Shown here in pieces: positions 31,564-53,592 of a DNA stretch of 64,000 nt. How positions within the stretch are numbered: the stretch's first letter is position 1; the number at the start of each line of letters is the position of its first letter. Source of the stretch: an uncultured Mageeibacillus sp. (lineage in GTDB: Bacteria > Bacillota > Clostridia > Saccharofermentanales > Saccharofermentanaceae); the NCBI GenBank assembly GCA_964617375.1, contig CAZTXQ010000004.1, forward strand, positions 34,546 to 98,545. Reading direction: 5' to 3'. Made by a program: the position numbers and the translations under genes. Below the pieces are notes generated by a model. The model was given only the letters and a program-made list of their open reading frames with translations, ran no database searches and was not told where the DNA came from.

Positions 31564-33723
31564 TTATTCGAACTTCTTGTATAGCACCCGCATCGCATTC
31601 AGTATGGCGAGTATCGCAACACCGACATCCGCAACGACTGCCGCCCACATGTTTGCCATTCCGAAAGCCGCCAGAACAAGGATGACACTCTTAACCCCCA
31701 GGGCAAAAACGATGTTCTCCGTCACGATTTTCCGCGTATAAGCCGATATCCGAAGCGCCGTAGCAACCTTGGACGGTTCATCGGTCATGATGACCACATC
31801 CGCGGCTTCGATCGCCGCATCCGACCCGACGCCGCCCATCGCGATTCCGACGTCCGCTCTTCGCAAGACTGGCGCGTCATTCATTCCGTCGCCGACAAAA
31901 ACCGTTTTCCGTCCGGGCGAACTCAGGGCGATCAGGCTCTCGAATGCCTCCACCTTCTGATGCGGCAGGAGACCGCTTTTCACCTCGTCGAGACCGAGCT
32001 CCCGCCCGATTCTGTCGCCGGTTTCGCGATTGTCACCGGTCAGCATGACAAGCTTCCCGATACCGAGGCGCCTTAAATCCGCGATCGCCCGTGCCGAGTC
32101 TTCTCTGACCGTATCAGAGATCACGATATGACCGTAATATACACGGTCAACAGCGACATGAACGACGGTTCCGGTTCTTTCCGGTACGTCAAAAGGTATA
32201 TCGAATTTCCTCATAAGCCCTTCGTTGCCGGCGAGAATTTCTTTCCCCTCGAAAACGGCCCGGGTTCCTTCGCCTGTGAATTCTTCGCTTTCCGTGACAG
32301 CTATCGCATCAACCGGGTTCCCGTACGCTTTCAGAACAGCTTCGGCAATCGGATGATTGGAATAGGCCTCCGCGTGAGCCGCATAGCGTAAAAGCTGCTC
32401 GCGATCCCCTGTCTTGCTCATGACCTCCGAGATCTCAAAGACGCCTTTTGTCAGGGTTCCCGTCTTGTCGAAAACGATCGTTCCGGCCGAATGCAGTGCT
32501 TCCAGATAATTGCCGCCTTTAAAGAGTATTCCCTGTTTCGAAGCCCTGCCGATTCCGCCGAAGAAGCCCAGAGGAATCGATATGACAAGCGCGCAGGGGC
32601 AGGAGATCATAAGGAATACGAGCGCTCTTCCGATCCACTCGCTCCAGACGGCTCCCGTGATCAGAAGCGGCGGCAGAATAGCAAGGGCCAGCGCCAGAAA
32701 TACAACGGCCGGCGAATAGATACGCGCAAATTTCGTAATGAAGTTCTCGGTCGCGGCCTTTTTGCTCGCGGCATTCTGCACGAGGTCCAGTATTTTGTAA
32801 ACCGTGGAATCGGTGTATTCCTTGGTAACCTGTACGACAAACATACCATTACGGTTGATCGACCCGGAATAGACTTCGCTTCCGGGTTCGACGCTTCGCG
32901 GTAAGGATTCACCTGTAATCGCGGACGTATCCAGCATTGAATTGCCTTCCCGGACGACACCGTCCAGCGGAATCCTCTCGCCCGGTTTGATCACGATGAA
33001 ATCGCCGGGATGCACGTCTTCCGGAACCACCTTGCTGATCTCGCCGTCTATTTGTAAGTTCGCATATTCCGGCTTGATGTTCATCAGAGACTTGATGGAC
33101 TTTCTCGAACGATCGACAGCCATATCCTGGAAGAATTCGCCGATCTTATAGAAAATCATAACGGCAACGCCCTCGCTGTACTCGCCGATCACGATTGCAC
33201 CGATCGTCGCGACGCTCATGAGGAAATTCTCGTCGAAGATCTGACCCTTCCCTATTTTCCGTACGGCCTTCACGAGGATATCGGCTCCGAAGATCAGGTA
33301 GCTTGTAAGGTAAAGAGCGATCCCTATTGCGTCGGTACGTTTAAGAATAAGCGCCAATGCGAAAAGAATCGCACCTACGGGATACGCGATCCTCTTAACC
33401 CGGCGGATCATAGCGCCCTCTTCCCCGGAACTCTCCGCCGGCTGCATCATGGACTGGCGGTCAGCTGTCGAAGAAACGGGTTCAACAATACGGATATCAG
33501 GTTCGATACTATGAACGATATCTTTGATCTTCTCTATAATCAGGTTGTCCTTATTGTCCTTCTCCAGGGCGAACTTCAGCGTTTTCGAGACGAAATCAAC
33601 CGAAGCGGATACGACTCCGTCCAGTTCGCCGACTTTCCGTTCAATCTTTGCGGCACAGTTCGCGCAGCCGAGATTCTCAAGGCTCCAGAGAATGGTTATG
33701 TCTTTCTTCATATATTTCCCCAT
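31564..33723 (-). CDS. heavy-metal (Cd/Zn/Co-type) P1B-ATPase
   Basis: The N-terminal HMA domain has GCANCAAKIE. The protein also has the TM CPC motif (SCPCALVISIP), DKTGTLT and GDGMNDAP. An alternative start is at 33711. Confidence 0.9.
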   Translation of the reverse strand: MGKYMKKDITILWSLENLGCANCAAKIERKVGELDGVVSASVDFVSKTLKFALEKDNKDNLIIEKIKDIVHSIEPDIRIVEPVSSTADRQSMMQPAESSGEEGAMIRRVKRIAYPVGAILFALALILKRTDAIGIALYLTSYLIFGADILVKAVRKIGKGQIFDENFLMSVATIGAIVIGEYSEGVAVMIFYKIGEFFQDMAVDRSRKSIKSLMNIKPEYANLQIDGEISKVVPEDVHPGDFIVIKPGERIPLDGVVREGNSMLDTSAITGESLPRSVEPGSEVYSGSINRNGMFVVQVTKEYTDSTVYKILDLVQNAASKKAATENFITKFARIYSPAVVFLALALAILPPLLITGAVWSEWIGRALVFLMISCPCALVISIPLGFFGGIGRASKQGILFKGGNYLEALHSAGTIVFDKTGTLTKGVFEISEVMSKTGDREQLLRYAAHAEAYSNHPIAEAVLKAYGNPVDAIAVTESEEFTGEGTRAVFEGKEILAGNEGLMRKFDIPFDVPERTGTVVHVAVDRVYYGHIVISDTVREDSARAIADLRRLGIGKLVMLTGDNRETGDRIGRELGLDEVKSGLLPHQKVEAFESLIALSSPGRKTVFVGDGMNDAPVLRRADVGIAMGGVGSDAAIEAADVVIMTDEPSKVATALRISAYTRKIVTENIVFALGVKSVILVLAAFGMANMWAAVVADVGVAILAILNAMRVLYKKFE

Positions 33724-33727
33724 ATCC

Positions 33728-34099
33728 TCACTTTTCTGAGATGTGGCTTAAGCCCTGATCGAAAATCTGCATGACGTGCTCATCAGCCAGCGAATAAAAA
33801 ACGGTCTTTCCGTCTTTTCTGGTCTTCACGAGCTTGGACTGCCGAAGTATACGGAGCTGATGGGAGATCGCCGACTGGGTCATCTTAAGGAGTTCCGCGA
33901 TATCGCAAACGCACATCTCCGTCTCGAAAAGGGCCGACATTATGCGTATTCTGGTCGAATCGCCGAATATCTTGAAGAGCTCCGCCAGATCAAAAAGCAT
34001 GTTCTCATCCGGTTGTCCGGACTTAAGGTGTTCCATAATCTCTTCGGGTATAACACGCGTTTCGGTTGATTCAATGTCATCAGGTTCGTCGTATATCAT
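33728..34099 (-). CDS. ArsR/SmtB-family metal-sensing repressor
   Basis: I chose the start MIYDEPDD at 34099, which has a ggaggaa RBS. The longer listed ORF would translate through the promoter and operators. The protein has the DSTRIRIMSAL...CVCDIAELL...SAISHQLRILR winged-helix region with an alpha3 Cys pair. Confidence 0.8.
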   Translation of the reverse strand: MIYDEPDDIESTETRVIPEEIMEHLKSGQPDENMLFDLAELFKIFGDSTRIRIMSALFETEMCVCDIAELLKMTQSAISHQLRILRQSKLVKTRKDGKTVFYSLADEHVMQIFDQGLSHISEK

Positions 34100-34123
34100 C
34101 CTTCGTTCCTCCATGTTATACAC

Positions 34124-34143
34124 ATATGAGCACTTGTTCATAT
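34124..34143. promoter_or_regulatory. proximal ArsR-type operator (imperfect 9-2-9 inverted repeat ATATGAGCA-CT-TGTTCATAT)
   Basis: It lies between the -10 box and the RBS of the arsR-ATPase operon. It has one mismatch relative to the distal site. Confidence 0.6.
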
Positions 34144-34153
34144 TTATGTCTTG

Positions 34154-34182
34154 ATTGTACACCGGGTGATTCTCGATGTCAA
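34154..34182 (-). promoter_or_regulatory. sigma-A type promoter of the arsR/P1B-ATPase operon
   Basis: The minus strand reads TTGACA (34182-34177), a 17-nt spacer, then TACAAT (34159-34154). Confidence 0.6.
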
Positions 34183-34185
34183 CAT

Positions 34186-34207
34186 CATATGAACACATGT
34201 TCATATG
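34186..34207. promoter_or_regulatory. distal ArsR-type operator (perfect 10-2-10 palindrome CATATGAACA-CA-TGTTCATATG)
   Basis: It directly abuts the -35 box of the minus-strand promoter. Confidence 0.65.
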
Positions 34208-34382
34208 TAATTTATCCGGCCGGGTAACGCTCTCACTGAACATCATATGAAAGAATATAGTAAGTATGATTATTTTGACATTTCAGCGCCGTCACTGTCT
34301 CAATAACCTCTCGAAACGAGAGGCCCGTTTTCACATTGTGTTCACATTTGTTTTAATTAATGTCCGAATTATGTCTTTATTG

Positions 34383-34411
34383 TTGACAATTCAACAAAAA
34401 TGCTGTATAAA
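34383..34411 (+). promoter_or_regulatory. candidate sigma-A promoter for the XrtG cassette
   Basis: TTGACA (34383-34388), a 17-nt spacer, then TATAAA (34406-34411) with TG immediately upstream. It lies about 95 nt before the ATG at 34507. Confidence 0.5.
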
Positions 34412-34506
34412 TAGGGTAAATAACAACCGTACAGGTTGCAAAAGAGAAAAAACGGGTCCAGCCTGCTGAATTACTGAAAATAACAGTATTCTTTCAAAGG
34501 AGCGTT

Positions 34507-37500
34507 ATGAGTTTCGAAAGCTATAAATATACATTTCGATTAAACGCTTCTCACAGCCGTCTTAACTCGGACGACACACATTCGCATACATTTGAGATTA
34601 CGCTTTATATCAGACAATCGGAGTCTTTCTCCGAATATCGCGAGACCGAGAAACGAATAGGCGATTATTTGAATCGTTACACCGGTGTGCTCTTAAACAA
34701 TACTCCTCCGTTTGACCGCACCAACCCGACTCTCGAGAACATGGGAGAGGAATTCTTCACGGGAATTTCCGATGTATTGTCCGGTGTCGGATATCAGCTG
34801 ATCCGGCTTACCATCAGCGAGAACCCGCAGAGAATCTACAGTGTCAACTTAGATGACTTAAGTCCCGATAAGCTTGAACGCCTTAAGCTCTCCAAAAGCA
34901 AAATCGAAGAAGCCGCGGAGGTCCCTCACAAGACACCCGATCACGCCGGAAAGATGCCGGAAGCGTCGATCAGACCCGAAACGCCGATTCTCGATACAGC
35001 CCCTGCAGCCGTGATTTCTTATGTCCCCCCAAAAGAGATCCGTCCGGCGTCCGGACTTTCTTTTCTTCTATCGTTTTGGCTGGTGCTCATCGCCGGCTTT
35101 GCTGTCATGACCGCCGTAGAGCATTCCGGATTCTATCCGCTCGGTCTGGATATACACGGTCACCTTTTCAAATCGAATCTGGTCTATAACGAGATTCTTA
35201 AAGGCAACTGGTATCCGTTATATACAGAGTTCTGGTACAACGGTCTCCAGCCGTTCCGCTACTGGCCACCTATGACGTATTACGTAATGGCGTTCCTGCA
35301 GTTTATCTCTGGCGGCGATGTTATGAATGCCTATCTGGGCTTCATCTGGCTGTCCTGTTCGGCAGGCGGCATCGGCTGGCTTCTGTTCGGGAAAAAATTG
35401 GGACGCCCCGTTCTGGGTGCATTTTTCGGACTGATATGGTTCTTCTTCCCCGATAACCTGAGAGTATTCTTCGGGGAAGGCAACATGCCGAGAATGCTGA
35501 TCACCATGCTGCTGCCGTACCTCTTCTATTTCTTATGGAGTTACGTGGCCTATCGCCGGAAGAGATGGGTAATTCCGCTGATCCTGCTGATGCTTGTCAT
35601 TATTTTCACGCATCTGATGATCTCGGCAATGGTCGGTGTCGCCTCCGCTCTCTTCCTGCTGATTTACGCGATTGCGAACAAGAGGTTCAAGGAATCGGTT
35701 CTTGCGATCCTTGCCATGCTCTTCTCCTTTGCGGTGGCCGGAATCTGGGTTTATCCGTCACTGGTGGGCGGCCTTACCTCGATGGCGTCCGACGGCACCT
35801 CTGCCCTTATGGCGTCACTAAGCGCAAGAATATATGTGTCCCTGAATCCTTTCATCCGTCTTGAAGGCGGTGTAACGGAACTTTATTTCGGCCTGGCCAT
35901 CGCACTGATCGCACTGATCGGGGTGTTCCTGTCGAATCGGAAAAGTCTTCCCGGATTCATGACACTCTTAATCGTAATACTTGGTACAACGACCGCTCTT
36001 ACGCCCCTCATTCAGCATCTTCCCTTAAGCCAGCTTTTCTGGGTTCGCCGCTTCACCCCGATCGCCTATGCATTCTTCGTGATCGCCGTTCTCGAATGGC
36101 GCAGCCTGAAAAAGCCAATCGCCGTTGCCTTGTGCTCTGTCATACTTCTCGACGCGATTCCGTCCTGTGACCTTGCAGCTTACGATTTCAGGATGAATGT
36201 TCCCGCCACCGTAAACAGCATCTCATCTACAATGGATGATCTTCTCATCACAGAGGCCAAAGATATTACAAAGCAGCGCGTGTCGCTTATGGATTTAAGC
36301 ACGTTGGGACCGATGCCATCCTACGCCTTCGCCGACGTCGGTACGAGAACGCAGTACGTATTCGGCTGGGCCTGGCAGGGTGCCGCAACGGCTAACAATA
36401 TCGCGTATCTGAACGAATCCCTTGAGAAGCAGAATTATCTTTATCTGTTTGACAGGAATCTCGAGCTTGGCGCCGATACGGTGCTCATTCAGAAATTGCA
36501 GATGAAAGGTACCGGTGCCCGCGAGAAATTATTGAAGGCAGCGGAGAAAGTCGGCTACAGTCTGATCGACGAAACCGACGAGATGCTTCTGTTCTCCTAT
36601 CCGGTCAACGGAAACTTCGGTGTCACGACCAAATACAGCGGGCTTGCCATAGGATCGACGGCAGCTCTCGTTCCCGGCATTCTTCCTTCCTTTCACCCGG
36701 GTGACAAAGTAATCATCGACGATTACACAGCGGCGGAACTGGAACAATATGACATGATCTATCTTTCCGGATTCTTCTACCGGAACAAAGCAGACGCCGA
36801 AAAAATCGTACGCGAAATAGCCGCCGCCGGCGTAAAAGTTTACATCGATATGAGCCGCATTCCGGCCGATCCGACCACACAGCGAATGACCTTTCTGGAT
36901 GTGTCTGCGCAGCCGATCACGTTTTATGACAGTTTTCCCGAGCTGATTACGGAATCGGTTACGACAAATGCCGCTCCCTTTGCAGAAGGATACGAGAAAT
37001 GGAACACCGTATATCTGACGGGACTCAGCGACGCGAACGGCTATGCATGGTTTCAGGATACCAAACTGGATTTTGTCCGAACAGACGAGACAAACAACAT
37101 CACGTTCCTCGGATTCAACCTTCTGTTTCACGCATATACGGCCGGGGACACGGCCGTGAAGGCTGTTTTTGACTCATTAATGGAGCTGGATGAAGATAAA
37201 CTGCCCGAACGTACCGTCGTACCGCTTGAAATTCGTTACGAAACGAATAAGATAATAATTGAGTCCTTATTTGATAATGTCAACACTACGATTGCATATC
37301 AGGATACCTTCAAGAGCGATCAGCCGATTCGCTCCGTGAACCACTTCCTGATCGTCGATAAAGGTACGACCGTGATCACAATGGAATATCCATACCTGAG
37401 GCAGGGAACAATCGTATCGGCTATCGGAATTGTTTTGGAAGCGGGGGTCCTTTATCTGATTTTTCGCAAATCCAAAACCGAAAGAACCGGGACAGCATCG

Positions 37501-37533
37501 AGCAAAGCAGCAGTAAGCGGAAAGGGAGCATGA
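34507..37533 (+). CDS. 6-pyruvoyl-tetrahydropterin-synthase-related domain fused to a large polytopic membrane protein (XrtG-cassette component)
   Basis: The RBS is aaaggagcg. Residues 1-115 are PTPS/QueD-like (NASH...HSHTFEI...TNPTLEN). At least 12 TM helices follow, then a roughly 400-aa extracytoplasmic domain and a terminal TM helix with an RKSK tail. Confidence 0.8.
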   Translation: MSFESYKYTFRLNASHSRLNSDDTHSHTFEITLYIRQSESFSEYRETEKRIGDYLNRYTGVLLNNTPPFDRTNPTLENMGEEFFTGISDVLSGVGYQLIRLTISENPQRIYSVNLDDLSPDKLERLKLSKSKIEEAAEVPHKTPDHAGKMPEASIRPETPILDTAPAAVISYVPPKEIRPASGLSFLLSFWLVLIAGFAVMTAVEHSGFYPLGLDIHGHLFKSNLVYNEILKGNWYPLYTEFWYNGLQPFRYWPPMTYYVMAFLQFISGGDVMNAYLGFIWLSCSAGGIGWLLFGKKLGRPVLGAFFGLIWFFFPDNLRVFFGEGNMPRMLITMLLPYLFYFLWSYVAYRRKRWVIPLILLMLVIIFTHLMISAMVGVASALFLLIYAIANKRFKESVLAILAMLFSFAVAGIWVYPSLVGGLTSMASDGTSALMASLSARIYVSLNPFIRLEGGVTELYFGLAIALIALIGVFLSNRKSLPGFMTLLIVILGTTTALTPLIQHLPLSQLFWVRRFTPIAYAFFVIAVLEWRSLKKPIAVALCSVILLDAIPSCDLAAYDFRMNVPATVNSISSTMDDLLITEAKDITKQRVSLMDLSTLGPMPSYAFADVGTRTQYVFGWAWQGAATANNIAYLNESLEKQNYLYLFDRNLELGADTVLIQKLQMKGTGAREKLLKAAEKVGYSLIDETDEMLLFSYPVNGNFGVTTKYSGLAIGSTAALVPGILPSFHPGDKVIIDDYTAAELEQYDMIYLSGFFYRNKADAEKIVREIAAAGVKVYIDMSRIPADPTTQRMTFLDVSAQPITFYDSFPELITESVTTNAAPFAEGYEKWNTVYLTGLSDANGYAWFQDTKLDFVRTDETNNITFLGFNLLFHAYTAGDTAVKAVFDSLMELDEDKLPERTVVPLEIRYETNKIIIESLFDNVNTTIAYQDTFKSDQPIRSVNHFLIVDKGTTVITMEYPYLRQGTIVSAIGIVLEAGVLYLIFRKSKTERTGTASSKAAVSGKGA

Positions 37534-37536
37534 AAC

Positions 37537-38223
37537 ATGAATAAGAAGATGAAAATACTGACGGGGATCATTGCCGCCGCATCCATTCTGGTGACAGGCT
37601 TCCCGGTTCTTGCCGCCTCGCCGGCCGGATCCATCAAGGGCAGCGATGTCATCTATACGGCGGACGCGGTCACGACCGACAAATTGGCCATAACGATCGA
37701 CGGGAGTTTTGAGGATTGGAGCGACAAGCCCGTTTACGAGTTGTTCTGGTCGGAGAGCACCAAGCACCATGTTCAGATTTTCAGGGACGACACCTATGTC
37801 TATCTTCATATCCGTATGAGCGATTCCGGTTATGCTAAGTTCAATGGATATGGTTATTGCTTCAATTTTGACAACAAAGATCATTTTGTTGATGTCGTCG
37901 CTGTGTCCGGCCCTACAGTAAACGGCATCAACGCCTTTGAGATTCGAAGACGCGAGGGAAATAAGCTGATTGACGATGCTCCTGCTTATGTCACCCATAC
38001 CGAAGGTCAGCCGGATGAATGCGAACTTAAGATACCGCTCCGCTTTTTTGACCCGCACCCGGAAAGAGTCACCAGCATTACGTTCACCTGTGACAATCTG
38101 GGCTCGCAGAGTGTAGAGTTTGAAGGAACCTCTACGGGGCCCTATATCATCGCGGGAGCCGGACTTGTTCTCGCGGCCGCCGGAATTTTCGCCTTCACGA
38201 AAAAAAGGAAGATTCGTACATGA
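37537..38223 (+). CDS. small secreted protein with a C-terminal TM plus basic sorting tail (candidate XrtG substrate, Firmicu-CTERM-like)
   Basis: It has a signal peptide (MNKKMKILTGIIAAASILVTGFPVLAAS) and about 170 aa of globular sequence. The C-terminus is ...EGTSTGPYIIAGAGLVLAAAGIFAFTKKRKIRT. Its stop overlaps the xrtG start (ATGA). Confidence 0.7.
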   Translation: MNKKMKILTGIIAAASILVTGFPVLAASPAGSIKGSDVIYTADAVTTDKLAITIDGSFEDWSDKPVYELFWSESTKHHVQIFRDDTYVYLHIRMSDSGYAKFNGYGYCFNFDNKDHFVDVVAVSGPTVNGINAFEIRRREGNKLIDDAPAYVTHTEGQPDECELKIPLRFFDPHPERVTSITFTCDNLGSQSVEFEGTSTGPYIIAGAGLVLAAAGIFAFTKKRKIRT

Positions 38224-38825
38224 ATATCATTACAGTCGTCGCACTCATTGGATGGATTTATCTGATCACGGTGCTCCATCGCGCAAAGCTGCCCTTTTTC
38301 ACCTTTCTTGCGGGAAGCGTCGGACTCTTTATTTTCATGATGGTGCTGCTTCAGGGGTATATAACGGAGCCACTGTCAAAAGCGGTGGCAGCTTCGACAG
38401 GTGTAATCGGGAATCTTACCGGTATGTTCTATTCCTACTACCAGTATTCGCTGATCTTTGTCCGCCACGGGGCGGAATCGATCTCCCTCTATATCGACTA
38501 TGAGTGCTCCGGTGTCATCGAGCTCCTGTCCTTCACGGCGCTTCTCTGGTTCTTCCCTCTTTACAAGATCTCGGAGAAAATCGTGGTCAACATCGTCGGC
38601 ATATTCTGGATTTTTGCTTCAAATATCCTGCGTCTGACGGTCATCTGTACGCTTGTTTATTTTTTCGGCAACGATATCTTTTTCTTCGCGCACGCAATAT
38701 TCGGCCGTATCATATTCTACGGGCTCTCGATCGTCCTCTATTTCTACGTTTTTACACGTTCGCAGATCATTAAACAGAAAGTAGGAAGGTTCGCTTATGG
38801 AAGCGCTGCTCAAGGAAATATTTGA
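38220..38825 (+). CDS. xrtG: exosortase family protein, Gram-positive type (XrtG)
   Basis: 201 aa and polytopic. It carries the exosortase catalytic signature: Cys96 in IDYECSGV (38505-38507), Arg138 in ASNILRLT and His158 in FFAHAIFGR. Confidence 0.8.
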   Translation: MNIITVVALIGWIYLITVLHRAKLPFFTFLAGSVGLFIFMMVLLQGYITEPLSKAVAASTGVIGNLTGMFYSYYQYSLIFVRHGAESISLYIDYECSGVIELLSFTALLWFFPLYKISEKIVVNIVGIFWIFASNILRLTVICTLVYFFGNDIFFFAHAIFGRIIFYGLSIVLYFYVFTRSQIIKQKVGRFAYGSAAQGNI

Positions 38826-40173
38826 ACAGATGATTTTCTGGATGGCGTGGATTATCATCCCGCTGTTCATGGAAATTCTTCCGGCTTTCGGCGGGTTTGT
38901 TTTGCTTGTCAAGAAACGCCTGTCTGCTAAGAAACAGAAGACCCCTTTGCGCGACCCCGAAATCACGCTGATTATTCCCGTGTACAACTCCGCTTCGACG
39001 CTCGAAGGCTGTCTCGAATCTGTCCGCAAATCGAATTATCCGGCCGAACGAATCAATATTTTGCTTGTAAACAACCAGAGCCGCGACAACAGCTTCGAAG
39101 TGTATTGCCGCTGTCAGGAGAAATTCCCCGAACTGTCCATGCAGTGGCTCAAGGCGCGGCAGGGCAAGTCGAAAGCTCTGAATCTGGCACTTTTCAACAG
39201 CGACGGCAAGTATATTATCCACATCGACAGCGACGGTCAGCTTCATCCCATGGCCATCCGGAATATCGTCGAGCGGTTCGAATCCAATCCGCAAATTCAC
39301 TGTCTGACAGGTGTTGTTCTTACCGATCCCGAAATGATTGAAGAGACAGAGAATCCGGCCATGCGGCTCTTCCGCCGCTGCGAGTTTCTCGAATACTGTC
39401 AGGACTTCCTGGCTGGCCGTAATTTCGAATCTGAACTCGACAGCATTTATACGCTCTCGGGGGCGTTCTCGGCTTTCCGGAAATCGACGATTCTTAAGAC
39501 GCAGCTCTATAACACCGACACGGTGTGCGAAGATACACAGGTTACCTTTCAGGTCAGAAAGCTCATGAAAAAGAGCATATATCTCTGTGAGAACGCGTTC
39601 TTTTTTGTCGATCCGATCGAATCCTTAGGGAAGCTCTATACACAGCGGCAGCGTTGGCAGACAGGCGAACTGGAAGTGTCCCACATGTTTCTGCAGGGCG
39701 AATTACGAACCAATGGTTTCTTCTCTGATTTCATGATCCGGCAGCTGACCTATGACCACACGTTCGCATTCCCGCGCATGATCTGGTATTTTGCGCTGAT
39801 CTGCCTTTTGTTCTTCAACTACCCCTTCATATTGATCGCAGGTTCGGTCATGATCCTCTATCTTCTCTACGTTTTTTCCGGTTTCCTTTATTACTTGAAT
39901 ATTATCGGATATCTCAAAGGCTTCCCCGAAATCCGACGTTATTATGCGCGAAAATGGTATATTCTTCCGCTCATGCCGATTTTCAATTTCTACTGTTTCT
40001 GGATCCGCTTCGCCGCGATTATCAACAGTATCGTCAACCGGAGTGGTTGGAAAACAAGCACTTTCAAAGAAGAACGGACGCGGTTCGGCGCTATCTTCAT
40101 GAAGGACTTTTCGCATTTTTACAGTATAATAAATAAGTTGAAGTCGCTTATAAATCGCGAACAAAGTGAGTAA
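38797..40173 (+). CDS. processive family-2 glycosyltransferase (XrtG-associated, cellulose/PNAG-synthase-like)
   Basis: It has the ITLIIPVYN start of the GT-A fold, a DSDG (DxD) motif, CEDTQ, and QRQRWQTGE (the QxxRW processivity motif). TM helices lie at both ends. It overlaps xrtG by 29 nt. Confidence 0.85.
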   Translation: MEALLKEIFEQMIFWMAWIIIPLFMEILPAFGGFVLLVKKRLSAKKQKTPLRDPEITLIIPVYNSASTLEGCLESVRKSNYPAERINILLVNNQSRDNSFEVYCRCQEKFPELSMQWLKARQGKSKALNLALFNSDGKYIIHIDSDGQLHPMAIRNIVERFESNPQIHCLTGVVLTDPEMIEETENPAMRLFRRCEFLEYCQDFLAGRNFESELDSIYTLSGAFSAFRKSTILKTQLYNTDTVCEDTQVTFQVRKLMKKSIYLCENAFFFVDPIESLGKLYTQRQRWQTGELEVSHMFLQGELRTNGFFSDFMIRQLTYDHTFAFPRMIWYFALICLLFFNYPFILIAGSVMILYLLYVFSGFLYYLNIIGYLKGFPEIRRYYARKWYILPLMPIFNFYCFWIRFAAIINSIVNRSGWKTSTFKEERTRFGAIFMKDFSHFYSIINKLKSLINREQSE

Positions 40174-41351
40174 TGGAGTATAGAATGGAAAAGGCAAATC
40201 AAAAGGAAAAAGGCATTCTTCTTGAATTTCTGACGATTGTGACCGTTCTTTTGATCTCGGTCTTTGCCGTTATATTCCTGAACAGCCAAACCGACGCCAT
40301 GACTAAGGGCTTAATAGAAAGTGCGGCAAAGGACAACGAATACACCGTACAAGTAATGGCAGACCGGCTCGCCGCCTCTGCTTCGGACGGCAAAAGTGCG
40401 GTCGAAATTGTTGCGTCGTCCACGCCATCCGGAACCCGGTACTGGTTCCTGTATTCCGCGGATACCTGCCTGTTCGAAAAGAACGCCGAAGTCACATCCG
40501 CATTAGGCGGTCTAACTTTTTCGCAAATCAAGGATTCCTATGTCAGGAGCGGCGGCAGAGGCATCGATACATACATGAGTCTCCTGTCAGCCGGCAACAA
40601 TTTCACGGCGGTGACGCTGAAAGACAGCACCGTCGGAAGCGAGCTTATCAGCGTCAAATTCATCACGATCGGCGGCGAGGTCTATGCTCTGGGCGTCTCC
40701 GTTCTTCAGAGTTATCTGTTGTCGACGGCCCACATGGGTGAGAGAATCTATCTTCTTCGCATACTGACGGTCGCTCTGTGCCTGATCGTTACGGGCGTTA
40801 CCGCCTATTTCGCTTTGTCCACGCGGAAAAAGTCCATTCAAATCCGCGCGCTCAAGTACGACCTTATGAATAAAAATGTTCTGGTGCAGGATCAGGGCGA
40901 GAAACTCTTCGAGTCACAAGCCGGCGATAATGATTTGACGGAAGACGCGCTTACGGGGCTCTATAACGCCGAGTTTTTCAAGACATTTCTCGAAAAGCTT
41001 TCGACAAGAAATGTCCGCGATACCGGATTCATTCTGGTCCGGATTGAGAATCTGAATGAGATTACCTTTGAAAGTGGATATGCGTTTTCGAGCCGCCTCT
41101 TATCGGATACGGCTTCCGGGTTCTTAAAGTTCGCCGGCGAGAAGGATCTGTGCGCGCGTACCGGAAGAAACGAATTCGTAATGGTTAAGATAAACACGAC
41201 CGGAAAATCGACCTGGGATACGGCCAGGAATCTCTTAAAAGAACTGAAAGACTCGAATCCCCAGGCACGGTTCGTCTCGGGTTCCGCCCTGCAGAATCCT
41301 GATATGAGCGTCGATGCCGCTTATGAATCGGCAAGGAAAGGCATGGCTTAG
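40173..41351 (+). CDS. membrane sensor protein with a degenerate GGDEF domain (GRNEF, and no RxxD I-site)
   Basis: The layout is TM, a roughly 160-aa extracytoplasmic domain, TM, then a GGDEF fold (DALTGLYN...). The signature GRNEF lies at 41163-41177, and GEKD lies at 41136-41147 where RxxD is expected. An alternative start is at 40185. Confidence 0.75.
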   Translation: MEYRMEKANQKEKGILLEFLTIVTVLLISVFAVIFLNSQTDAMTKGLIESAAKDNEYTVQVMADRLAASASDGKSAVEIVASSTPSGTRYWFLYSADTCLFEKNAEVTSALGGLTFSQIKDSYVRSGGRGIDTYMSLLSAGNNFTAVTLKDSTVGSELISVKFITIGGEVYALGVSVLQSYLLSTAHMGERIYLLRILTVALCLIVTGVTAYFALSTRKKSIQIRALKYDLMNKNVLVQDQGEKLFESQAGDNDLTEDALTGLYNAEFFKTFLEKLSTRNVRDTGFILVRIENLNEITFESGYAFSSRLLSDTASGFLKFAGEKDLCARTGRNEFVMVKINTTGKSTWDTARNLLKELKDSNPQARFVSGSALQNPDMSVDAAYESARKGMA

Positions 41352-41356
41352 AACAT

Positions 41357-41836
41357 ATGAAATACAGCCAGTATAACTTCAAATTCTATCTAAACGCCAA
41401 TCACGCCATCTGGCTTGGCGGGGTTCTCGGTCAGAACCATCCTCACACCTGGGAAATATCTCTCGATACGATCAAGGTCGGTGACGATTTTGTCCAGTTC
41501 GACCAGATCGAAAAATCCGTGGAGAAGTACTTCGCTGTGTTTCAGGATTCGGACATCAACAAAATCGAGCCGTTTGACACAACAAATCCGACGCTCGAAA
41601 ACTTATGCGGCTATTTCAAAAATGAGCTTGGAAAACTGCTCGGAAATAAAGGATGGCTTCTGGTCAGAATTGAAATGAGCGAGACGCCGACCAGGTCCTA
41701 TATTATTGATCTGACCGACGAAGTCGACGCCATACTGACGGTAAGCCGGCGTGAGCGCGAACTTGCGAGGAACTTCGCAAACGCCGCCGACAACAAGCTC
41801 GACGAGATTCTCGGTTTGAAGGAATCGGGGAAATAA
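41357..41836 (+). CDS. stand-alone PTPS/QueD-like protein, paralog of the N-terminal domain of the 34507 gene
   Basis: It has NANH...HPHTWEI...EPFDTTNPTLENLCGYF, compared with NASH...HSHTFEI...PPFDRTNPTLENMGEEFF in the fusion protein. Confidence 0.75.
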   Translation: MKYSQYNFKFYLNANHAIWLGGVLGQNHPHTWEISLDTIKVGDDFVQFDQIEKSVEKYFAVFQDSDINKIEPFDTTNPTLENLCGYFKNELGKLLGNKGWLLVRIEMSETPTRSYIIDLTDEVDAILTVSRRERELARNFANAADNKLDEILGLKESGK

Positions 41837-42029
41837 GAAAGAATCGCAAGCAGAGTCATCCGCGGGACATGAACAATCCTTTCTAGTCTAAAGAATCGCA
41901 AATAACCAGACTAAATATGGGTCTGTACTAAAAATGAAAGCATCCAGCGTGGGTTATTGATACAGCCTGCCGCAAATCGACTGATTTTGGTTATGAAGCG
42001 GAAATCTGGACTCATGCGAAAATGATAAA

Positions 42030-42364
42030 CCTACTCAATCCGCATCTGAGCGTATTTGGGTAGGTACGCCGGTGCCCTATTACGTTGTTTTTTATCATTG
42101 CGAGCCTACTCAATCCGCACATGAGTGCATTTGGGTAGGTACCCCGGTGTCCCGATGCGATGTTTTTTATCATTGCGAGCCTACTCAATCAGCATCTGAG
42201 TGCATTTGAGTAGGCACGCCAACCACCCGAAGTGCATTTCTTATCATTGATAAGCCTGCTCAATCCGCATCTGAGTGCATTTGAGTAGGTACGCCGGCCT
42301 CCCGAAGCGCGTTTCTTATCATTGATATACCTACTCAATCAGTATCTAAACGCATTTGAGTAGG
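42030..42364. repeat. 4.5 tandem copies of a 75-bp hairpin-containing unit (array A)
   Basis: Copies start at 42030, 42105, 42180, 42255 and 42330. The unit is cctactcaatccgcatctgagtgcatttgagtagg (9-bp arms cctactcaa/ttgagtagg) followed by a conserved 40-nt segment ending in cttatcattgataag. Confidence 0.9.
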
Positions 42365-42366
42365 TT

Positions 42367-42834
42367 GAACTTCTATTCCTTGACGAATGGTCCTGATTCC
42401 CATCAAGCAGGACGATACGCAACTCTTACCCTCCATTGCCTAACGGCGGTATTGTATCCGCCGGACTAAAATCGCCAAAATGCAATGAGTATTGTCTCAC
42501 GGTTTGAATCACCGGAACCCGGCTCATTTTGTCACGAATTACTCAGCTCACACATCTATGCAGACACATGAGTATCTGATAACTATGGCAGGGCGGTTTG
42601 AATTTGTCTTTACACGGATCCTGGTCGAACCTTGTTGAAGGCTTTTTTAGTAAGCTGACGCGACAGATACTTAGAGAAATCAGAGTGGCTGATAAAGAAG
42701 AACGGATCGAACGAATAAACAAGTATTTCGCTGAAATCAACGATTCGCCCATTGTCTACGACTGGAAATACAATATGAGTGAAATCGATGTTGAAGAGGC
42801 TATCAGTCTAGCTAATTCGAAATCGTTATACTAG
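42367..42834 (+). pseudogene. decayed IS630-family (DDE) transposase remnant
   Basis: Fragments sit in different frames: ELLFLDEW (42367-42390), FVTNYSAHTSMQTHEYLITMAGRFEFVFT, then a frameshift into LHGSWSNLVEGFFSKLTRQILREIRV...N.SPIVYDWKY, the typical IS630 C-terminus. A possible N-terminal HTH fragment, DFGYEAEIWTHAKMI, lies at 41983-42027 on the other side of the repeat array. Confidence 0.6.
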
Positions 42835-43049
42835 TCTCCTATATATTCAAATCTTTTCAGTCTTCTCTCGTCGATTTCGATCGTCTCGTTCCACATGCCG
42901 GCGGGTCTTACCCAGATTCCGCCTTCACCGTACATCGCCTGATAAACGACCATTTTTTCGCGGGTCTCCGAATGTGTTGCTGTATAGAGCACAAGGTACT
43001 CGTTTCCTTTGTAGTGCCTGTACCGGCCCGGTTTGATTTCTGTATCCAT
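42831..43049 (-). CDS. DUF1653 domain protein
   Basis: 72 aa. GRYRHYKGNEYLVLYTATHSETREKMVVYQAMYG is the characteristic DUF1653 core. Confidence 0.75.
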   Translation of the reverse strand: MDTEIKPGRYRHYKGNEYLVLYTATHSETREKMVVYQAMYGEGGIWVRPAGMWNETIEIDERRLKRFEYIGD

Positions 43050-43134
43050 GTATCAGAGATCCGCCCTTCGTTTTTCTACAAGTATACAAATATATCTTCC
43101 AAAAAACCACTGTCGTTCTTTGCCACGCGTCTGT

Positions 43135-43163
43135 TTGCACGCTTCTCCGGGCTATGGTATATT
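43135..43163 (+). promoter_or_regulatory. candidate promoter for the cobalamin riboswitch / btu operon
   Basis: TTGCAC (43135-43140), a 17-nt spacer, then TATATT (43158-43163). Confidence 0.45.
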
Positions 43164-43194
43164 TGTCCTGAATGAACCGATGCACAGATGCGCG

Positions 43195-43360
43195 AAAGCG
43201 CCGGCGCCCGACCAAGGTGCCGAGGGAACACGGATGAGATTTCCGGACTATCCCAGTAACCGTGAAGCGGACGAAACGGTATTTAAGTCACTGTCATAAC
43301 GACGGGAAGACGCCGGAGTAGGATGAAGCCAAGCCGGGAGACCTGTATGTGCATGATTTA
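43195..43360 (+). promoter_or_regulatory. cobalamin (B12) riboswitch aptamer
   Basis: It contains GGUGCCGAGGGAACACGG.UGAGAUUUCC, CCCAGUAACCGUGAAG, GUCACUG, GGGAAGAC and the B12-box AAGCCGGGAGACCUG (43330-43345), all in the canonical order. Boundaries are approximate. Confidence 0.8.
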
Positions 43361-43416
43361 CTCCTGGGGATGAGAATTATACATGCGCGCCATTTTTAGC
43401 GGCGTGCTGTTTTGTT

Positions 43417-43443
43417 GCTCCTCCGGTCGGGGGAGCTTTTTTT
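43417..43443 (+). terminator. intrinsic terminator acting as the riboswitch expression platform
   Basis: gctcctcc-ggtc-gggggagc forms 8 bp including one G-U pair, followed by T7. Confidence 0.75.
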
Positions 43444-43495
43444 GCTCCTTCACAAGCGGTTCATGACCCAATATTTTGAAGGAGGAACATTTCCC

Positions 43496-44506
43496 ATGAA
43501 AAAGACTAGGACTTTCACACTTCTTCTCGCCGGAATTCTGGCGCTCTCCCTCAGCACCGGCTGCTCGGCCGGAGCGGCTGCGGACACAACTATTAAGAAT
43601 ACGGCATCCGGCACAACCGCTGCAGCCGTATTGACGGATGCGACCGAAGGCCAGACCGCCGCAGAAACCACCGCAGATTCTTCGGCCGTTAAAGTTACCG
43701 ATATGGCCGGACGCGAGATCGTCCTCGACAAGCCGGCCGGGAAAATCGTCGCCGTCACGGCTTCCGACTGTGAGATTCTGTACGCGATCGGAGCCGGTGA
43801 CAAATTGGTCGGCCGCGGCGAATATTGCGACTACCCGGCGGAAGTCTTAAATCTTCCCTCCGTCGAATCCGGCGCCGAAACCAATGTCGAGCAGATCATT
43901 GCCCTTGACCCCGACGTCGTCATTATGAATTTTATGGCGCAAAGCAAAGAACAGGTTGCCGCTCTCGAAAACGCCGGGATTACGGTTGTCATGAACAACG
44001 CCGTCACGATCGAGGATATCTATACGTCGATCACCCTCTTAGGTGCAATCACTGGCAAGGAGAGCGAAGCGGCCTCCGTCATATCCGATATGAAGTCTGT
44101 TTTCGACAATATCGACCAGAGTTCGGAAAACACCGGAAAAACCGTCTATTTTGAAGTGTCCCCGCTCGAATACGGCCTTTGGACAGCGGGAAAGGGTACC
44201 TTCATGGATGAGATCGCAGGTCTTCTCGGACTGACGAATATTTTCGCCGACGTGGACGGCTGGGGTGAAGTATCCCAGGAACAGGTCATCGAGAGGAACC
44301 CGGACTATATTGTGACGATTGCCATGTACTCCGGCGAAGGGACCAGCCCCGTCGACGAGATCGCCGGCCGCGAAGGCTGGCAGAACATCAGCGCAGTTAA
44401 GAACGGTATGATCTACAATGCGGATTCCAACGAAATCTCGAGACCCGGTCCCCGCATCGCAAATGCTGCGAAGGCTTTTTACGATTTTGTCGAAGCGGCA
44501 GTCTAA
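43496..44506 (+). CDS. BtuF-like (cluster A-II) cobalamin/siderophore-type substrate-binding lipoprotein
   Basis: The RBS gaaggagg precedes the start MKKTRTF. There is a lipobox LSTGC followed by a Thr/Ala-rich linker. It has the periplasmic-binding-protein-2 fold pattern (IVAVTASDCEILYAIGAGDKLVG). Confidence 0.8.
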   Translation: MKKTRTFTLLLAGILALSLSTGCSAGAAADTTIKNTASGTTAAAVLTDATEGQTAAETTADSSAVKVTDMAGREIVLDKPAGKIVAVTASDCEILYAIGAGDKLVGRGEYCDYPAEVLNLPSVESGAETNVEQIIALDPDVVIMNFMAQSKEQVAALENAGITVVMNNAVTIEDIYTSITLLGAITGKESEAASVISDMKSVFDNIDQSSENTGKTVYFEVSPLEYGLWTAGKGTFMDEIAGLLGLTNIFADVDGWGEVSQEQVIERNPDYIVTIAMYSGEGTSPVDEIAGREGWQNISAVKNGMIYNADSNEISRPGPRIANAAKAFYDFVEAAV

Positions 44507-44527
44507 CAGGAAAGGAAGGACATCCGG

Positions 44528-45565: not shown

Positions 45566-45568
45566 CGT

Positions 45569-46441: not shown

Positions 46442-46445
46442 ACAA

Positions 46446-46988: not shown

Positions 46989-47062
46989 TCCGGGATATCC
47001 AATTCTTGGCATCTCGAACACAGGCGGCATTTTTGAGCCGGCAGAAGGGTCGGGAACGGGTT

Positions 47063-47255
47063 TACAGCCTGAAAGAGTCAAAATGACGATTTAGGCCGTA
47101 GTTTTTGCGAAAACGCAGGCGCCGGAAGGGCCAAACTACAGCCTGAAAGAGTCAAAATGACGATTTAGGCCGTAGTTTTTGCGAAAACACAGGCGCCGGA
47201 AGGGCTAAGCTACAGCCTGAAAGAGCCAAAGAGTCAAACTGGGCTGTATCGTTAA
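47063..47255. repeat. 2.6 tandem copies of a 74-bp hairpin plus T-tract unit (array B) in a convergent intergenic region
   Basis: Copies start at 47063, 47137 and 47211. The unit is tacagcctgaaagagtcaaaatgacgatttaggccgtag followed by tttttgcgaaaac(g/a)caggcgccggaaggg. Confidence 0.9.
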
Positions 47256-47288
47256 GATAGATATTGTCAGCGTTGACACATACGCGTC

Positions 47289-50273: not shown

Positions 50274-50358
50274 ACTCGTCTCCTTAAGCCTTTCTGTCGG
50301 ATCCGCTCCCGCGTATTCCGCTGCCGTTCATGCCAAATAAAGGGATTGTGTTTATTGC

Positions 50359-50979: not shown

Positions 50980-50985
50980 ATTCCT

Positions 50986-53580: not shown

Positions 53581-53592
53581 CTTTCTTACCCC

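Follow-up and report, generated by a model that had tools for sequence, protein, structure and literature searches.

Background

The sorting signals of the XrtA/PEP-CTERM exosortase-EPS systems of Gram-negative bacteria and of the archaeosortase ArtA/PGF-CTERM systems are tripartite, with a short motif, a transmembrane (TM) helix and a basic cluster, and both kinds of system are linked genomically to polysaccharide synthesis. The exosortase-G (XrtG) system with its Firmicu-CTERM substrate, a Gram-positive exosortase system, is already catalogued in NCBIfam and is biochemically unexplored. XrtG is carried by at least 237 reference species, and close homologues of the proteins described here are named "exosortase family protein XrtG" and "exosortase G-associated glycosyltransferase" in public sources. 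The only literature mentions of the system that we found are a transcriptome listing of L. plantarum, whose version includes a CTERM protein, XrtG and two glycosyltransferases (PMC12854382), and a CAZyme table (PMC8951740). No functional study of the cassette was found in the searchable literature, in agreement with the first-pass annotation of this DNA, which had described it as not known to be characterized experimentally.

Two further groups of systems share components with XrtG loci. The pairing of a GT-A enzyme, a GtrA flippase and a GT-C transferase is an established paradigm in Firmicutes (PMC8035078; also PMC5836110), and membrane GT2 glycosyltransferases with an inactive-GGDEF membrane partner are found in Listeria PssA-E and B. 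subtilis YdaJ-N, where the degenerate partners are PssE and YdaK (PMC4125290, PMC5422440).

A complete XrtG cassette

The window analyzed here, a stretch of 64,000 nucleotides from an uncultured Mageeibacillus sp., contains a complete and typical six-gene XrtG cassette, referred to as genes A to F. All six open reading frames are on the forward strand and span coordinates 34507 to 41836, confirming the gene list of the first-pass annotation. Family assignments were judged against the NCBIfam curated cut-offs, and all four curated models that apply (TIGR03110, TIGR03111, TIGR03112, and the Firmicu-CTERM model TIGR04145) score well above them at the cassette, so that the combination of XrtG, a GT2 and a PTPS-related membrane protein does match the context models TIGR03110 to TIGR03112 named at first reading. 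We also inspected the 80 best-matching loci, nearly all of them from Clostridia, and the gene set is common to them, the conserved synteny for which a check had been proposed. The identification as an XrtG cassette follows from the scores of the four models, an invariant catalytic-type triad, the position of a substrate gene upstream of XrtG, and this conservation of the gene set. There is no defining difference from the NCBIfam XrtG/Firmicu-CTERM system; the gene neighbourhood is that behind the context models, and the window copy is an ordinary member.

Promoter and gene organization

A sigma-70-type promoter at 34383 to 34411 on the forward strand was read directly from the sequence, and has TTGACA at 34383-34388, a 17-nt spacer, and TATAAA at 34406-34411; its hexamers match the consensus at 11 of 12 positions, the near-consensus promoter noted at first reading. 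It is missing from the output of our promoter scan only because the scan demands a T as the sixth base of the -10 hexamer. For weaker promoter-like matches the region shows no excess over shuffled sequences (12 found versus 11.3 expected), and the promoter call therefore rests on quality and position and not on statistics. An AAAGGAG ribosome-binding site is present at 34496-34502 before gene A, and no Rfam family matches within the leader of about 95 nt.

The five gene junctions, computed from the sequence, are +3 nt, -4 nt (an ATGA overlap), -29 nt, -1 nt and +5 nt. Four of these are as previously described, but the stop codon of gene D and the start codon of gene E at 40173, which had been said to abut, overlap by one nucleotide (TAATG). 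Each of the six starts is preceded by a purine-rich Shine-Dalgarno-like stretch, and the search for an intrinsic terminator downstream of 41836 gave none. Because the genes are so tightly packed we infer that the six are co-transcribed as an operon, with the single strong promoter and the tight junctions both counting in favor.

The Firmicu-CTERM protein and XrtG

Gene B (37537 to 38223; 228 aa) encodes the Firmicu-CTERM substrate, matching TIGR04145 at 126 bits (cut-off 50), in keeping with its earlier description as a small secreted protein with a CTERM-style tail. A signal peptide, hydrophobic at residues 7-25, is followed by a beta-sandwich ectodomain (~57-200) and a sorting tail composed of G197-T-S-T-G-P202, a TM helix at 203-221, and KKRKIRT. 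The tail is conserved among homologues (alignment A3), with Thr198 and Thr200 invariant; it is the only such sorting tail within the window, and a substrate gene with a tripartite tail lies directly upstream of XrtG in 77 of the 80 loci. The ectodomain matches nothing in Pfam, and its AlphaFold core (pLDDT ~80) has no Foldseek match at E ≤ 0.001. The match of highest probability is the carbohydrate-binding module CBM9 1i82 (0.97, E 0.038), a faint hint that the ectodomain might bind carbohydrate.

Gene C (38220 to 38825; 201 aa) encodes XrtG. With about six hydrophobic segments it is a minimal exosortase, and it scores 215 bits against TIGR03110 (cut-off 102.75). The Cys96, Arg138 and His158 signature reported at first pass is invariant in 18 diverse homologues (alignment A1), and a sequence-based search detected no related protein of solved structure. 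The signature domain with its Cys-Arg-His triad is shared with XrtA and ArtA (exosortase/archaeosortase model TIGR04178, 55.9 bits, cut-off 23), although the XrtA-type and Art models give XrtG scores far short of their cut-offs. XrtG also differs from these in being a minimal 201-aa enzyme from an organism without an outer membrane, in serving a single dedicated substrate at each locus instead of many, and in the substrate motif, which is G-T-[SP]-T-x-P and not PEP or PGF.

A processive-type GT2 and a GT-C-fold membrane protein

The product of gene D (38797 to 40173; 458 aa) is the XrtG-associated membrane GT2, with a score of 668.2 bits against TIGR03111 (cut-off 363.95). The motifs D144-S-D146, C-E-D and Q-R-Q-R-W, listed in the first-pass annotation, can be read from the translation, and correspond to the DxD, xED and QxxRW common to the membrane GT2 enzymes of Listeria PssA-E, B. 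subtilis YdaJ-N, PgaC/IcaA and BcsA. These motifs, together with TM helices at both the N- and C-terminus and an alignment with BcsA over residues 50-373, suggest that the gene D protein is a processive synthase. The next-best model, PgaC_IcaA, gives only 117 of the 422 bits that its cut-off demands, which leaves the sugar without a name, and the score against the CelA equivalog is also below its cut-off.

Gene A (34507 to 37533) codes for a protein of 1008 aa in which, as was proposed, a PTPS-related domain is fused to a polytopic membrane protein. Residues 1-137 are a cytoplasmic PTPS/QueD-like T-fold domain ('A1 type'; TIGR03112, 101.4 bits, cut-off 69.35), followed by a disordered linker (138-176), a membrane core from 183 to ~590, extracytoplasmic alpha/beta and beta domains (~590-960), and a C-terminal TM helix (964-986). 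The AlphaFold model (pLDDT 85.1, pTM 0.74) places about 13 helices in the membrane from residue 183 to residue 561, besides the C-terminal one, which fits the earlier count of at least 12. The membrane part proves to be a GT-C-fold glycosyltransferase. This refinement is drawn from a 599-bit match of residues 250-875 to PF10131, a member of GT-C clan CL0111 (PMC7801869); from Foldseek matches to AftD (E 1.2e-6), ArnT, PglB, STT3 and AftA, all with probability 1.00; from Asp215, which is invariant in a 34-sequence alignment (A2) and lies in the first outside loop just after TM1; and from GtrB- and GtrA-like neighbours in relatives. Nothing in the name of the PF10131 protein points to its GT-C nature.

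GtrB-like genes are present in 31 of the 80 loci and GtrA-like genes in 22, and one homologue is a PF10131+GtrA fusion (P0214). Many relatives have a GtrB-like GT-A enzyme and a GtrA flippase alongside a GT-C transferase, as do CsbB/GtcA/YfhO, GtlA/GtlB, GtrABC and S. mutans Pgf. In contrast to CsbB/GtcA/YfhO-type systems, gene A belongs to PF10131 and not to YfhO or PMT_2, carries the N-terminal T-fold and C-terminal TM anchor, and sits in an exosortase/synthase cassette. There is also no GtrA or GtrB homologue within the window, which leaves the lipid-linked donor for gene A unaccounted for there.

The resemblance of the GtrB-like/GtrA/GT-C trio in relatives to Firmicutes systems that modify LTA, WTA and SCWP (PMC5836110, PMC8035078) raises the question of whether the GT-C and accessory genes decorate a pre-existing wall glycopolymer (teichoic acid or secondary wall polysaccharide) in the way of CsbB/GtcA/YfhO, with XrtG and its substrate only loosely connected. 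However, across the 80 related loci the GT-C gene goes together with those for XrtG, the CTERM substrate and the synthase GT2, often by fusion or coupling, which speaks for a dedicated acceptor that the cassette itself makes, and inspection of the ORF list by eye reveals no teichoic-acid genes adjoining the cassette in the window. We regard wall decoration as very unlikely.

Protein O-glycosylation coupled to sorting is an unlikely explanation too, but one with more in its favor. Here the GT-C enzyme would glycosylate the Firmicu-CTERM protein, either in the ectodomain or, for example, at a Thr of G-T-[SP]-T-x-P, and XrtG would anchor the glycoprotein, the GT2 polymer being secondary or itself the attached glycan. 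The invariance of Thr198 and Thr200 is consistent with this, and the substrates of Haloferax ArtA are both glycosylated by the GT-C enzyme AglB and lipid-anchored. The gene A model matches the oligosaccharyltransferases PglB, STT3 and AglB as well as polymer-modifying enzymes; the accessory GT2 of relatives is closest, below cut-off, to PgfS, AglJ, and dolichyl- and polyprenyl-phosphate hexose transferases; and S. mutans Pgf pairs a GtrB-like enzyme with membrane glycosyltransferases acting on surface adhesins (PMC5856776). However, the QxxRW processive-synthase signature of the core GT2 is not needed for glycosylating one protein, gene B lacks the Ser/Thr-rich disordered stalk typical of O-glycosylation, its invariant Thr residues lie within the presumed cleavage motif, and no acceptor sequon is known.

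A conserved GGDEF-like membrane protein

Gene E (40173 to 41351; 392 aa) has TM helices at residues 15-33 and 197-215 on either side of an extracytoplasmic domain of ~150 aa, and ends in a degenerate cytoplasmic GGDEF-like domain at ~250-392. The domain matches Pfam GGDEF at 44.1 bits (cut-off 23.8) and scores below the cut-off of TIGR00254 (31.7 versus 37.4 bits). Its description as a dead GGDEF domain holds: the signature reads GRNEF, and the I-site position is GEKD instead of RxxD. In ~70 of the 80 loci this slot is taken by a homologue, in 57-60 cases with the EN-EC architecture seen in the window and in nine as an EN::PTPS fusion. Gene E is a conserved core component of the XrtG system, yet no dedicated curated model matched in NCBIfam, Pfam or PADLOC-independent scans and no name was found in public sources.

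The juxtaposition of genes D and E, as in Pss and Yda, could point to an exopolysaccharide operon gated by c-di-GMP, in which the GT2 would be activated through gene E as the receptor. PssE has been proven to act as an I-site receptor and is essential for Pss EPS synthesis (PMC4125290), and the gene E protein likewise directly follows a synthase-type GT2 to which it is probably translationally coupled. Furthermore, the protein in the E slot of some lineages is 600 aa long, matches GGDEF more strongly (71.7 bits) and has an HD-GYP domain that is intact, and two other proteins encoded in the window match the GGDEF part of the gene E profile. PssE, however, binds through RxxD, and neither the GGDEF signature nor the I-site is conserved anywhere in the gene E family, the only position conserved at more than 90% being Tyr171 in the outside domain. 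With both signature and I-site absent, gene E probably does not bind c-di-GMP at the canonical I-site. The GGDEF-like domain is, moreover, swapped for a PTPS-like domain in nine loci, Pfam finds no PilZ domain in gene D, and an Rfam search of the leader gave no c-di-GMP riboswitch. Gating by c-di-GMP seems quite improbable. Compared to the Pss, Yda, PNAG and cellulose systems the cassette lacks a BcsB/PgaD/IcaD-like partner and a CE4 deacetylase.

Two diverged PTPS-like paralogues

Gene F (41357 to 41836; 159 aa) is the free PTPS-like paralogue anticipated at first reading ('F type'), with a TIGR03112 score of 144.7 bits (cut-off 69.35). Almost all loci of sufficient length for a judgement have both paralogue types, the gene A N-terminus and gene F. 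A rival reading takes them for genuine pterin or 7-deazaguanine enzymes (PTPS or QueD) that merely lie beside an EPS cluster, and the name given to the protein by one public source points that way. The Pfam PTPS matches (38.9 and 47.5 bits) are in line with such a role, as is the retained fold, with the gene A domain giving target-normalised TM-scores of 0.76-0.85 to the PTPS/QueD structures 4ntm, 2dj6 and 3qna. The zinc-binding triad (His16, His28 and His30 in gene F) and two glutamates (Glu81 and Glu109) are invariant in a 40-sequence alignment (A4), and both paralogues keep the triad and the Glu that anchors the pterin substrate. However, both lack the Cys and the Asp-His dyad needed for catalysis, and these are replaced in all 40 sequences (alignment A4 and profile alignment to PTPS/QueD structures). 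Gene F also misses the QueD equivalog cut-off widely (17.4 versus 89.25 bits), and the presence of these genes follows XrtG and not folate or queuosine genes. Fusions, which PTPS/QueD enzymes do not share, join the domain to the GT-C enzyme in 34 loci, to the N-terminal module of gene E in nine, and to each other in two, which argues for physical association. A role in pterin or queuosine synthesis can be set aside as extremely unlikely; the domains look like zinc- and ligand-binding modules, and given the retained zinc site and Glu they could be enzymes of some other chemistry.

A model for the cassette

The explanation we favor, and consider reasonably probable, combines surface glycan synthesis, modification and protein sorting in five steps. 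The GT2 of gene D would use a nucleotide sugar to polymerise a beta-linked glycan, extruding it through its own TM channel, as in BcsA-, PgaC- and HAS-type enzymes. At the outer membrane face the GT-C enzyme of gene A would move sugar from a flipped polyprenyl-phosphate-sugar donor onto the polymer or the sorted protein; genes for supplying this donor (for a GtrB-like GT2 and for a GtrA flippase) lie within the cassette in many relatives and here would have to lie elsewhere. The T-fold paralogues (the gene A N-terminus and gene F) probably assemble in the cytoplasm into a hetero-oligomer that contains zinc and docks on the membrane components, most likely a ligand binder or scaffold and not a pterin synthase, and gene E, which as a conserved bitopic partner has an outside domain besides its relic GGDEF, is in this lineage probably a structural or signal-relay subunit rather than a canonical c-di-GMP receptor. 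The gene B protein would be exported by Sec and then retained in the membrane by its C-terminal helix, and XrtG, using Cys96, Arg138 and His158, would cut at or near G-T-S-T-G-P; as with sortases, archaeosortase A and rhombosortase, the ectodomain would then be handed to an acceptor. The mature product, a small beta-sandwich that is possibly carbohydrate-binding, may then organise the polymer or tether it at the cell surface.

Identity and organization of the cassette

The six forward-strand genes at 34507–41836, designated A to F, form a locus whose identity as an exosortase G (XrtG) cassette is essentially certain. The models TIGR03110, TIGR03111, TIGR03112, and Firmicu-CTERM all match above their curated cut-offs and the signature residues of XrtG are invariant among its relatives; the first-pass annotation, which had recognized the cassette from its gene content, was therefore correct in every particular, and its six open reading frames (ORFs) are reproduced to the exact coordinate. 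The locus is a textbook example of the XrtG system curated in NCBIfam and is already known as a kind, and public records name close homologues as XrtG and "exosortase G-associated glycosyltransferase".

The genes are tightly packed. Computed directly, genes A and B are separated by 3 nt and genes E and F by 5 nt, while B and C overlap by 4 nt (ATGA), C and D by 29 nt, and D and E by 1 nt (TAATG), and a purine-rich ribosome-binding stretch precedes all six starts. It is thus a reasonable inference from this packing that the six genes constitute a single translationally coupled unit. The near-consensus promoter proposed upstream is present, with TTGACA at 34383–34388, a 17-nt spacer, and TATAAA at 34406–34411, matching at 11 of 12 positions; our promoter scan demands T at the last −10 position, which is the sole reason that this site went unlisted. 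Within the cassette, promoter-like matches are not enriched (12 found, 11.3 expected in shuffled sequence), and terminator-like matches are likewise reported as not enriched (13 found, 9.0 expected in shuffles). No terminator was found after gene F by consensus scan, and folding of 41830–42110 is not significant (z = −0.5). Across the leader and cassette (33700–42700) there is no Rfam match at E ≤ 1 to a riboswitch or structured leader.

Flanking regions

The cassette is closely followed on the forward strand by 4.5 tandem copies of a 75-bp unit (42030–42365; 80% matches), and every unit carries the imperfect palindrome CCTACTCAATCCGCATCTGAGTGCATTTGAGTAGG. Near the window end (63850–63959), the opposite strand carries two further palindrome copies at the same 75-bp distance, and the six matches in the window compare with none expected by chance. 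A CRISPR-like array was ruled out because the spacers between the palindromes are also similar, and the repeat resembles a dispersed element of REP or MITE type. The G+C content is 47–50% across the cassette region (34001–44000), 55–57% in 44001–60000, and 52–54% upstream, and a short ORF after the cassette (42598–42834) resembles by eye the C-terminal end of a transposase. The low G+C content, repeat array, and transposase-like ORF could mark a variable or acquired region.

Directly upstream of the cassette promoter and divergent from it are minus-strand genes (31564–34246) for a P-type ATPase (719 aa) and an ArsR/CadC-like regulator (172 aa), near a strong minus-strand promoter-like site (TTGACA-17-TACAAT) at 34182–34154. 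The ATPase has CPC and DKTGT motifs and an N-terminal metal-binding CxxC, and is CadA/ZntA-like by eye only. Further upstream, a minus-strand ORF of 2350 aa (9328–16380) has an N-terminus resembling by eye a non-ribosomal peptide synthetase condensation domain, and is adjoined by a 223-aa ORF (16346–17017).

Distribution and synteny

A pattern scan using one genome per species yielded at least 237 XrtG relatives, and we inspected the best 80 loci, a sample that leaves the Lactobacillales versions outside. These 80 are almost wholly from Clostridia, including Oscillospiraceae, Ruminococcaceae, Lachnospiraceae, Clostridium, Ruminiclostridium, Desulfosporosinus, Anaerovoracaceae, and Coprococcus; two of the records have other labels, one being binned as Bacteroidales and the other as Bifidobacterium catenulatum. 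At 76% identity, the closest XrtG match comes from uncultured Oscillospiraceae or Mageeibacillus-like metagenome-assembled genomes. The system is also carried by cultured species amenable to genetics, among them C. acetobutylicum, C. ljungdahlii, C. autoethanogenum, and L. plantarum (PMC12854382).

Comparison of the six window proteins with the 80 best loci by tblastn bears out the expected synteny across Clostridia: virtually every sufficiently long locus encodes a GT-C protein, a CTERM protein, XrtG, a GT2, and two PTPS-like domains. Two gene orders were seen. One is that of the window, A(PTPS::GT-C)-B-C-D-E-F; the other, common in Lachnospiraceae, has a free PTPS gene of the A1 type (that of the gene A N-terminus), then B-C-D-(GtrB-like)-E-(GtrA) and a free F-type PTPS gene, followed by an unfused GT-C. 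A fusion of the F-type PTPS to GT-C in Lachnospiraceae proved to be wrong, both PTPS genes being free-standing there.

XrtG and its Firmicu-CTERM partner

Gene C (201 aa) scores 215 bits against TIGR03110 (XrtG; cut-off 102.75) and 55.9 bits against the exosortase/archaeosortase signature TIGR04178 (cut-off 23), and matches Exosortase_EpsH in Pfam. Its proposed signature of Cys96, Arg138, and His158 is invariant in an alignment of 18 sequences, and no solved structure related to XrtG emerged when a profile was searched against PDB sequences.

Gene B (228 aa) matches TIGR04145 (Firmicu-CTERM) with 126 bits (cut-off 50) and is, as described earlier, a small secreted protein with a CTERM-style tail, consisting of GTSTGP, a transmembrane (TM) helix, and KKRKIRT. 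In 77 of the 80 loci the gene immediately preceding XrtG encodes a signal-peptide protein of 200–617 aa, whose tail has the consensus ...N[LI]G.Q....G[TS][SP][TS]xP followed by a TM helix and a Lys/Arg cluster. The window contains only one Firmicu-CTERM-type tail, and the XrtG system is a dedicated pairing of one sortase with one substrate, which XrtG would presumably cleave and transfer.

The gene B family has 414 representatives in an exhaustive profile search, with the ectodomain duplicated in many. The ectodomain is modelled by AlphaFold as a beta-sandwich (pLDDT ~80), and has no PDB neighbour at E ≤ 0.001 in Foldseek and no Pfam match even at E ≤ 5. The likeliest Foldseek match is the CBM9 structure 1i82 (probability 0.97, E 0.038), and an "IDGxxxDW" motif was noticed by eye; the resemblance to CBM9 is a weak lead.

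Two glycosyltransferases, of the GT-C and GT2 types

Gene A (1008 aa) had been described as a PTPS-related membrane protein. The PTPS-like domain stands, with 101.4 bits for the N-terminus against TIGR03112 (cut-off 69.35), and the membrane part can now be refined to a GT-C transferase: PF10131, a family of the GT-C clan CL0111 (PMC7801869), covers residues 250–875 with 599 bits. An AlphaFold model based on 34 aligned sequences (pLDDT 85.1, pTM 0.74) has a membrane core that matches AftD (E 1.2e-6), ArnT, PglB, STT3, AftA, and AglB at a Foldseek probability of 1.00, and residues 1–137 match the QueD/PTPS fold with target-normalised TM-scores of 0.76–0.85. Gly213, Asp215, Gly218, and His219 are invariant in the 34 sequences, and Asp215 directly follows TM1 (helix 183–207) in the model, where it would be the conserved acidic residue of the first extracytoplasmic GT-C loop, with a putative catalytic role. 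The C-terminal part is modelled as a folded extracytoplasmic region (~590–960) and a final TM helix (964–986).

The gene A transferase probably draws on a lipid-linked sugar donor. A GtrB-like GT2 of ~250 aa is encoded in 31 of the 80 relatives' loci, nearest to the polyprenyl-/dolichyl-phosphate sugar synthases PpgS, AglJ, and PgfS and below the cut-offs for all three; a GtrA-family flippase is encoded in 22 of the 80, and one homologue is a PF10131::GtrA fusion. The GT-A/flippase/GT-C logic is known from multi-component glycosylation systems of Firmicutes (PMC8035078, PMC5836110), and the relatives' GtrB-like GT2, GtrA, and GT-C follow the same logic. No GtrA or GtrB homologue was found within the 64-kb window by tblastn.

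Gene D (458 aa) scores 668.2 bits against TIGR03111, the XrtG-associated GT2 (cut-off 363.95), and matches Pfam GT2 families. Its description as a processive GT2 agrees with the DSD, CED, and QRQRW motifs in the translation, with flanking TM helices (hydrophobic segments at 13–38 and 322–371), and with an alignment to BcsA over residues 50–373. Membership of the PgaC/IcaA family of PNAG synthases was rejected (TIGR03937, 117.4 bits against a cut-off of 422.3), although gene D may work like PgaC. As judged from its sequence, gene D is predicted to encode a processive synthase.

The synthase-type gene D product would make a glycan and the GT-C enzyme would decorate it outside the membrane. That the GT-C enzyme instead O-glycosylates protein B is unlikely in our estimation, and we see only a slim chance that what it decorates is a wall polymer unrelated to the cassette.

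A pair of PTPS-like T-fold proteins

Gene F (159 aa), annotated as a free PTPS-like paralogue, indeed scores 144.7 bits against TIGR03112 (cut-off 69.35), and Pfam PTPS matches both T-fold domains. Among 40 sequences covering both paralogue types, His16, His28, His30, Thr31, Phe73, Glu81, and Glu109 (gene F numbering) are invariant. In an alignment to PTPS and QueD structures, which rests on the 40-sequence profile since a PDB search with the single gene F sequence was uninformative, the three histidines correspond to the zinc ligands and Glu109 to the pterin-anchoring glutamate. The anchoring glutamate recognises the 2-amino-4-oxo-pyrimidine ring, which is present in pterins and guanine.

The catalytic Cys position is occupied by L, V, G, or similar residues, and the position of the "DH" dyad reads Q-D or S/T-G. 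Membership of the QueD equivalog was rejected on a score of 17.4 bits against a cut-off of 89.25 and on replacement of the catalytic Cys and the Asp-His dyad, and we give almost no credence to genuine pterin synthesis by these genes, notwithstanding the zinc ligands and anchoring glutamate that they share with PTPS and QueD.

The T-fold domains of the related loci occur in four architectures: free PTPS domains (99), PTPS::GT-C fusions (34), fusions of the N-terminal module of E to PTPS (9), and PTPS-PTPS tandems (2), the last at 17629–18720 in locus L012 and 8708–9268 in locus L059 of the best 80. The fusions to both GT-C and E provide Rosetta-stone-style evidence for physical cooperation among the T-fold proteins, GT-C, and E. 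We hypothesize that the T-fold proteins are zinc proteins, either non-catalytic or neo-functional, that physically partner the membrane machinery. More speculatively, and decidedly unlikely as a complete account, the pair would form a cytoplasmic hetero-oligomer docked on GT-C and E, which would either sense a guanine- or pterin-type ligand or catalyse new chemistry, and would gate both glycosylation outside the membrane and the surface assembly that depends on the exosortase. If true, this would give the T-fold a new role, regulatory or enzymatic, and would explain why a PTPS-like domain replaces the relic GGDEF domain of E in some lineages.

Gene E, a conserved subunit with a degenerate GGDEF domain

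Gene E (392 aa) consists of a TM helix, an outside domain, a second TM helix, and a GGDEF-like domain that scores 44.1 bits against PF00990 (cut-off 23.8) and 31.7 bits against TIGR00254, under its cut-off of 37.4; no dedicated curated model in NCBIfam or Pfam matched. The earlier reading of the GGDEF domain as dead holds, the signature being GRNEF and GG(D/E)EF being unconserved across the family. The I-site position, five residues upstream of the signature, is GEKD rather than RxxD, and RxxD is conserved neither among 61 family members nor among the long forms with HD-GYP. The sole position more than 90% conserved is Tyr171, in the outside domain.

The family fills its slot in ~70 of the 80 loci. 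Some distant members were recovered directly by phmmer (~1e-8), and a single clean profile iteration recovered the others (1e-14 to 1e-108); profiles were built from size-restricted seeds, with N-terminal, C-terminal, and PTPS profiles kept separate, because E::PTPS fusion ORFs drew an unrestricted profile into PTPS domains. These comparisons suggest that the gene E product is a core subunit, conserved across the related loci, for which c-di-GMP binding through a canonical I-site is improbable. Gating by c-di-GMP through E in the manner of PssE is thus disfavoured because E has no I-site, and we regard it as very unlikely.

Two groups of loci depart from the usual form of E. Eight loci from Desulfosporosinus, Anaerovoracaceae, and relatives (L012 at 15353–17197, with equivalents in L017, L028, L030, L032, L035, L036, and L060) encode a ~600-aa protein that shares the N-terminal membrane module of gene E, has near-canonical but inactive GGSEF, GSSEF, or GNSEF signatures without RxxD, and carries a phosphodiesterase domain of the HD-GYP family with its motifs intact (HD...GYP, HHE). 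The long forms point to descent from, or exchange with, genuine c-di-GMP signalling proteins. The same eight loci additionally hold a second, divergent PF10131-like gene. In nine others (L061 at 11944–13038, and L025, L049, L050, L051, L064, L069, L075, and L080) an F-type PTPS-like domain, joined in frame to the N-terminal membrane module, takes the place of the GGDEF-like domain.

Elsewhere in the window, a minus-strand gene for a ~525-aa protein (24149–25732) matches the GGDEF part of the E profile (E ~1e-15), and a second minus-strand ORF of ~525 aa (5885–7453) gave a less secure match to this part, from the first, drifted E profile only. Genes for c-di-GMP signalling are probably present in this organism beyond the cassette.

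Discussion

The working model that we favour, drawn by analogy and in our view rather probable, is that the gene D synthase makes a glycan that the gene A transferase decorates, and that XrtG processes the secreted beta-sandwich protein B, which would be attached at the surface and organise or tether the polymer. A cytoplasmic zinc T-fold hetero-oligomer, together with E, would provide scaffold or regulatory subunits.

The original survey of exosortases and archaeosortases was reportedly that of Haft et al. in 2012 (J Bacteriol). Our search of the literature yielded no functional study of the XrtG system, in agreement with the first-pass view that it has never been characterised experimentally; the only mentions found are in an L. 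plantarum transcriptome listing (PMC12854382) and a CAZyme table (PMC8951740). To this our analysis adds the GT-C identity of gene A and its lipid-linked-donor context, a putatively non-catalytic pair of zinc T-fold proteins with their fusions, and gene E as a likely core subunit with neither a curated model nor an I-site. Although this copy of the locus is itself ordinary, its analysis converts a vague annotation into concrete hypotheses for a system that belongs, in Gram-positive bacteria, to the exosortase/archaeosortase superfamily. In gut and industrial Clostridia, surface polymers influence aggregation, biofilm formation, and host interaction.
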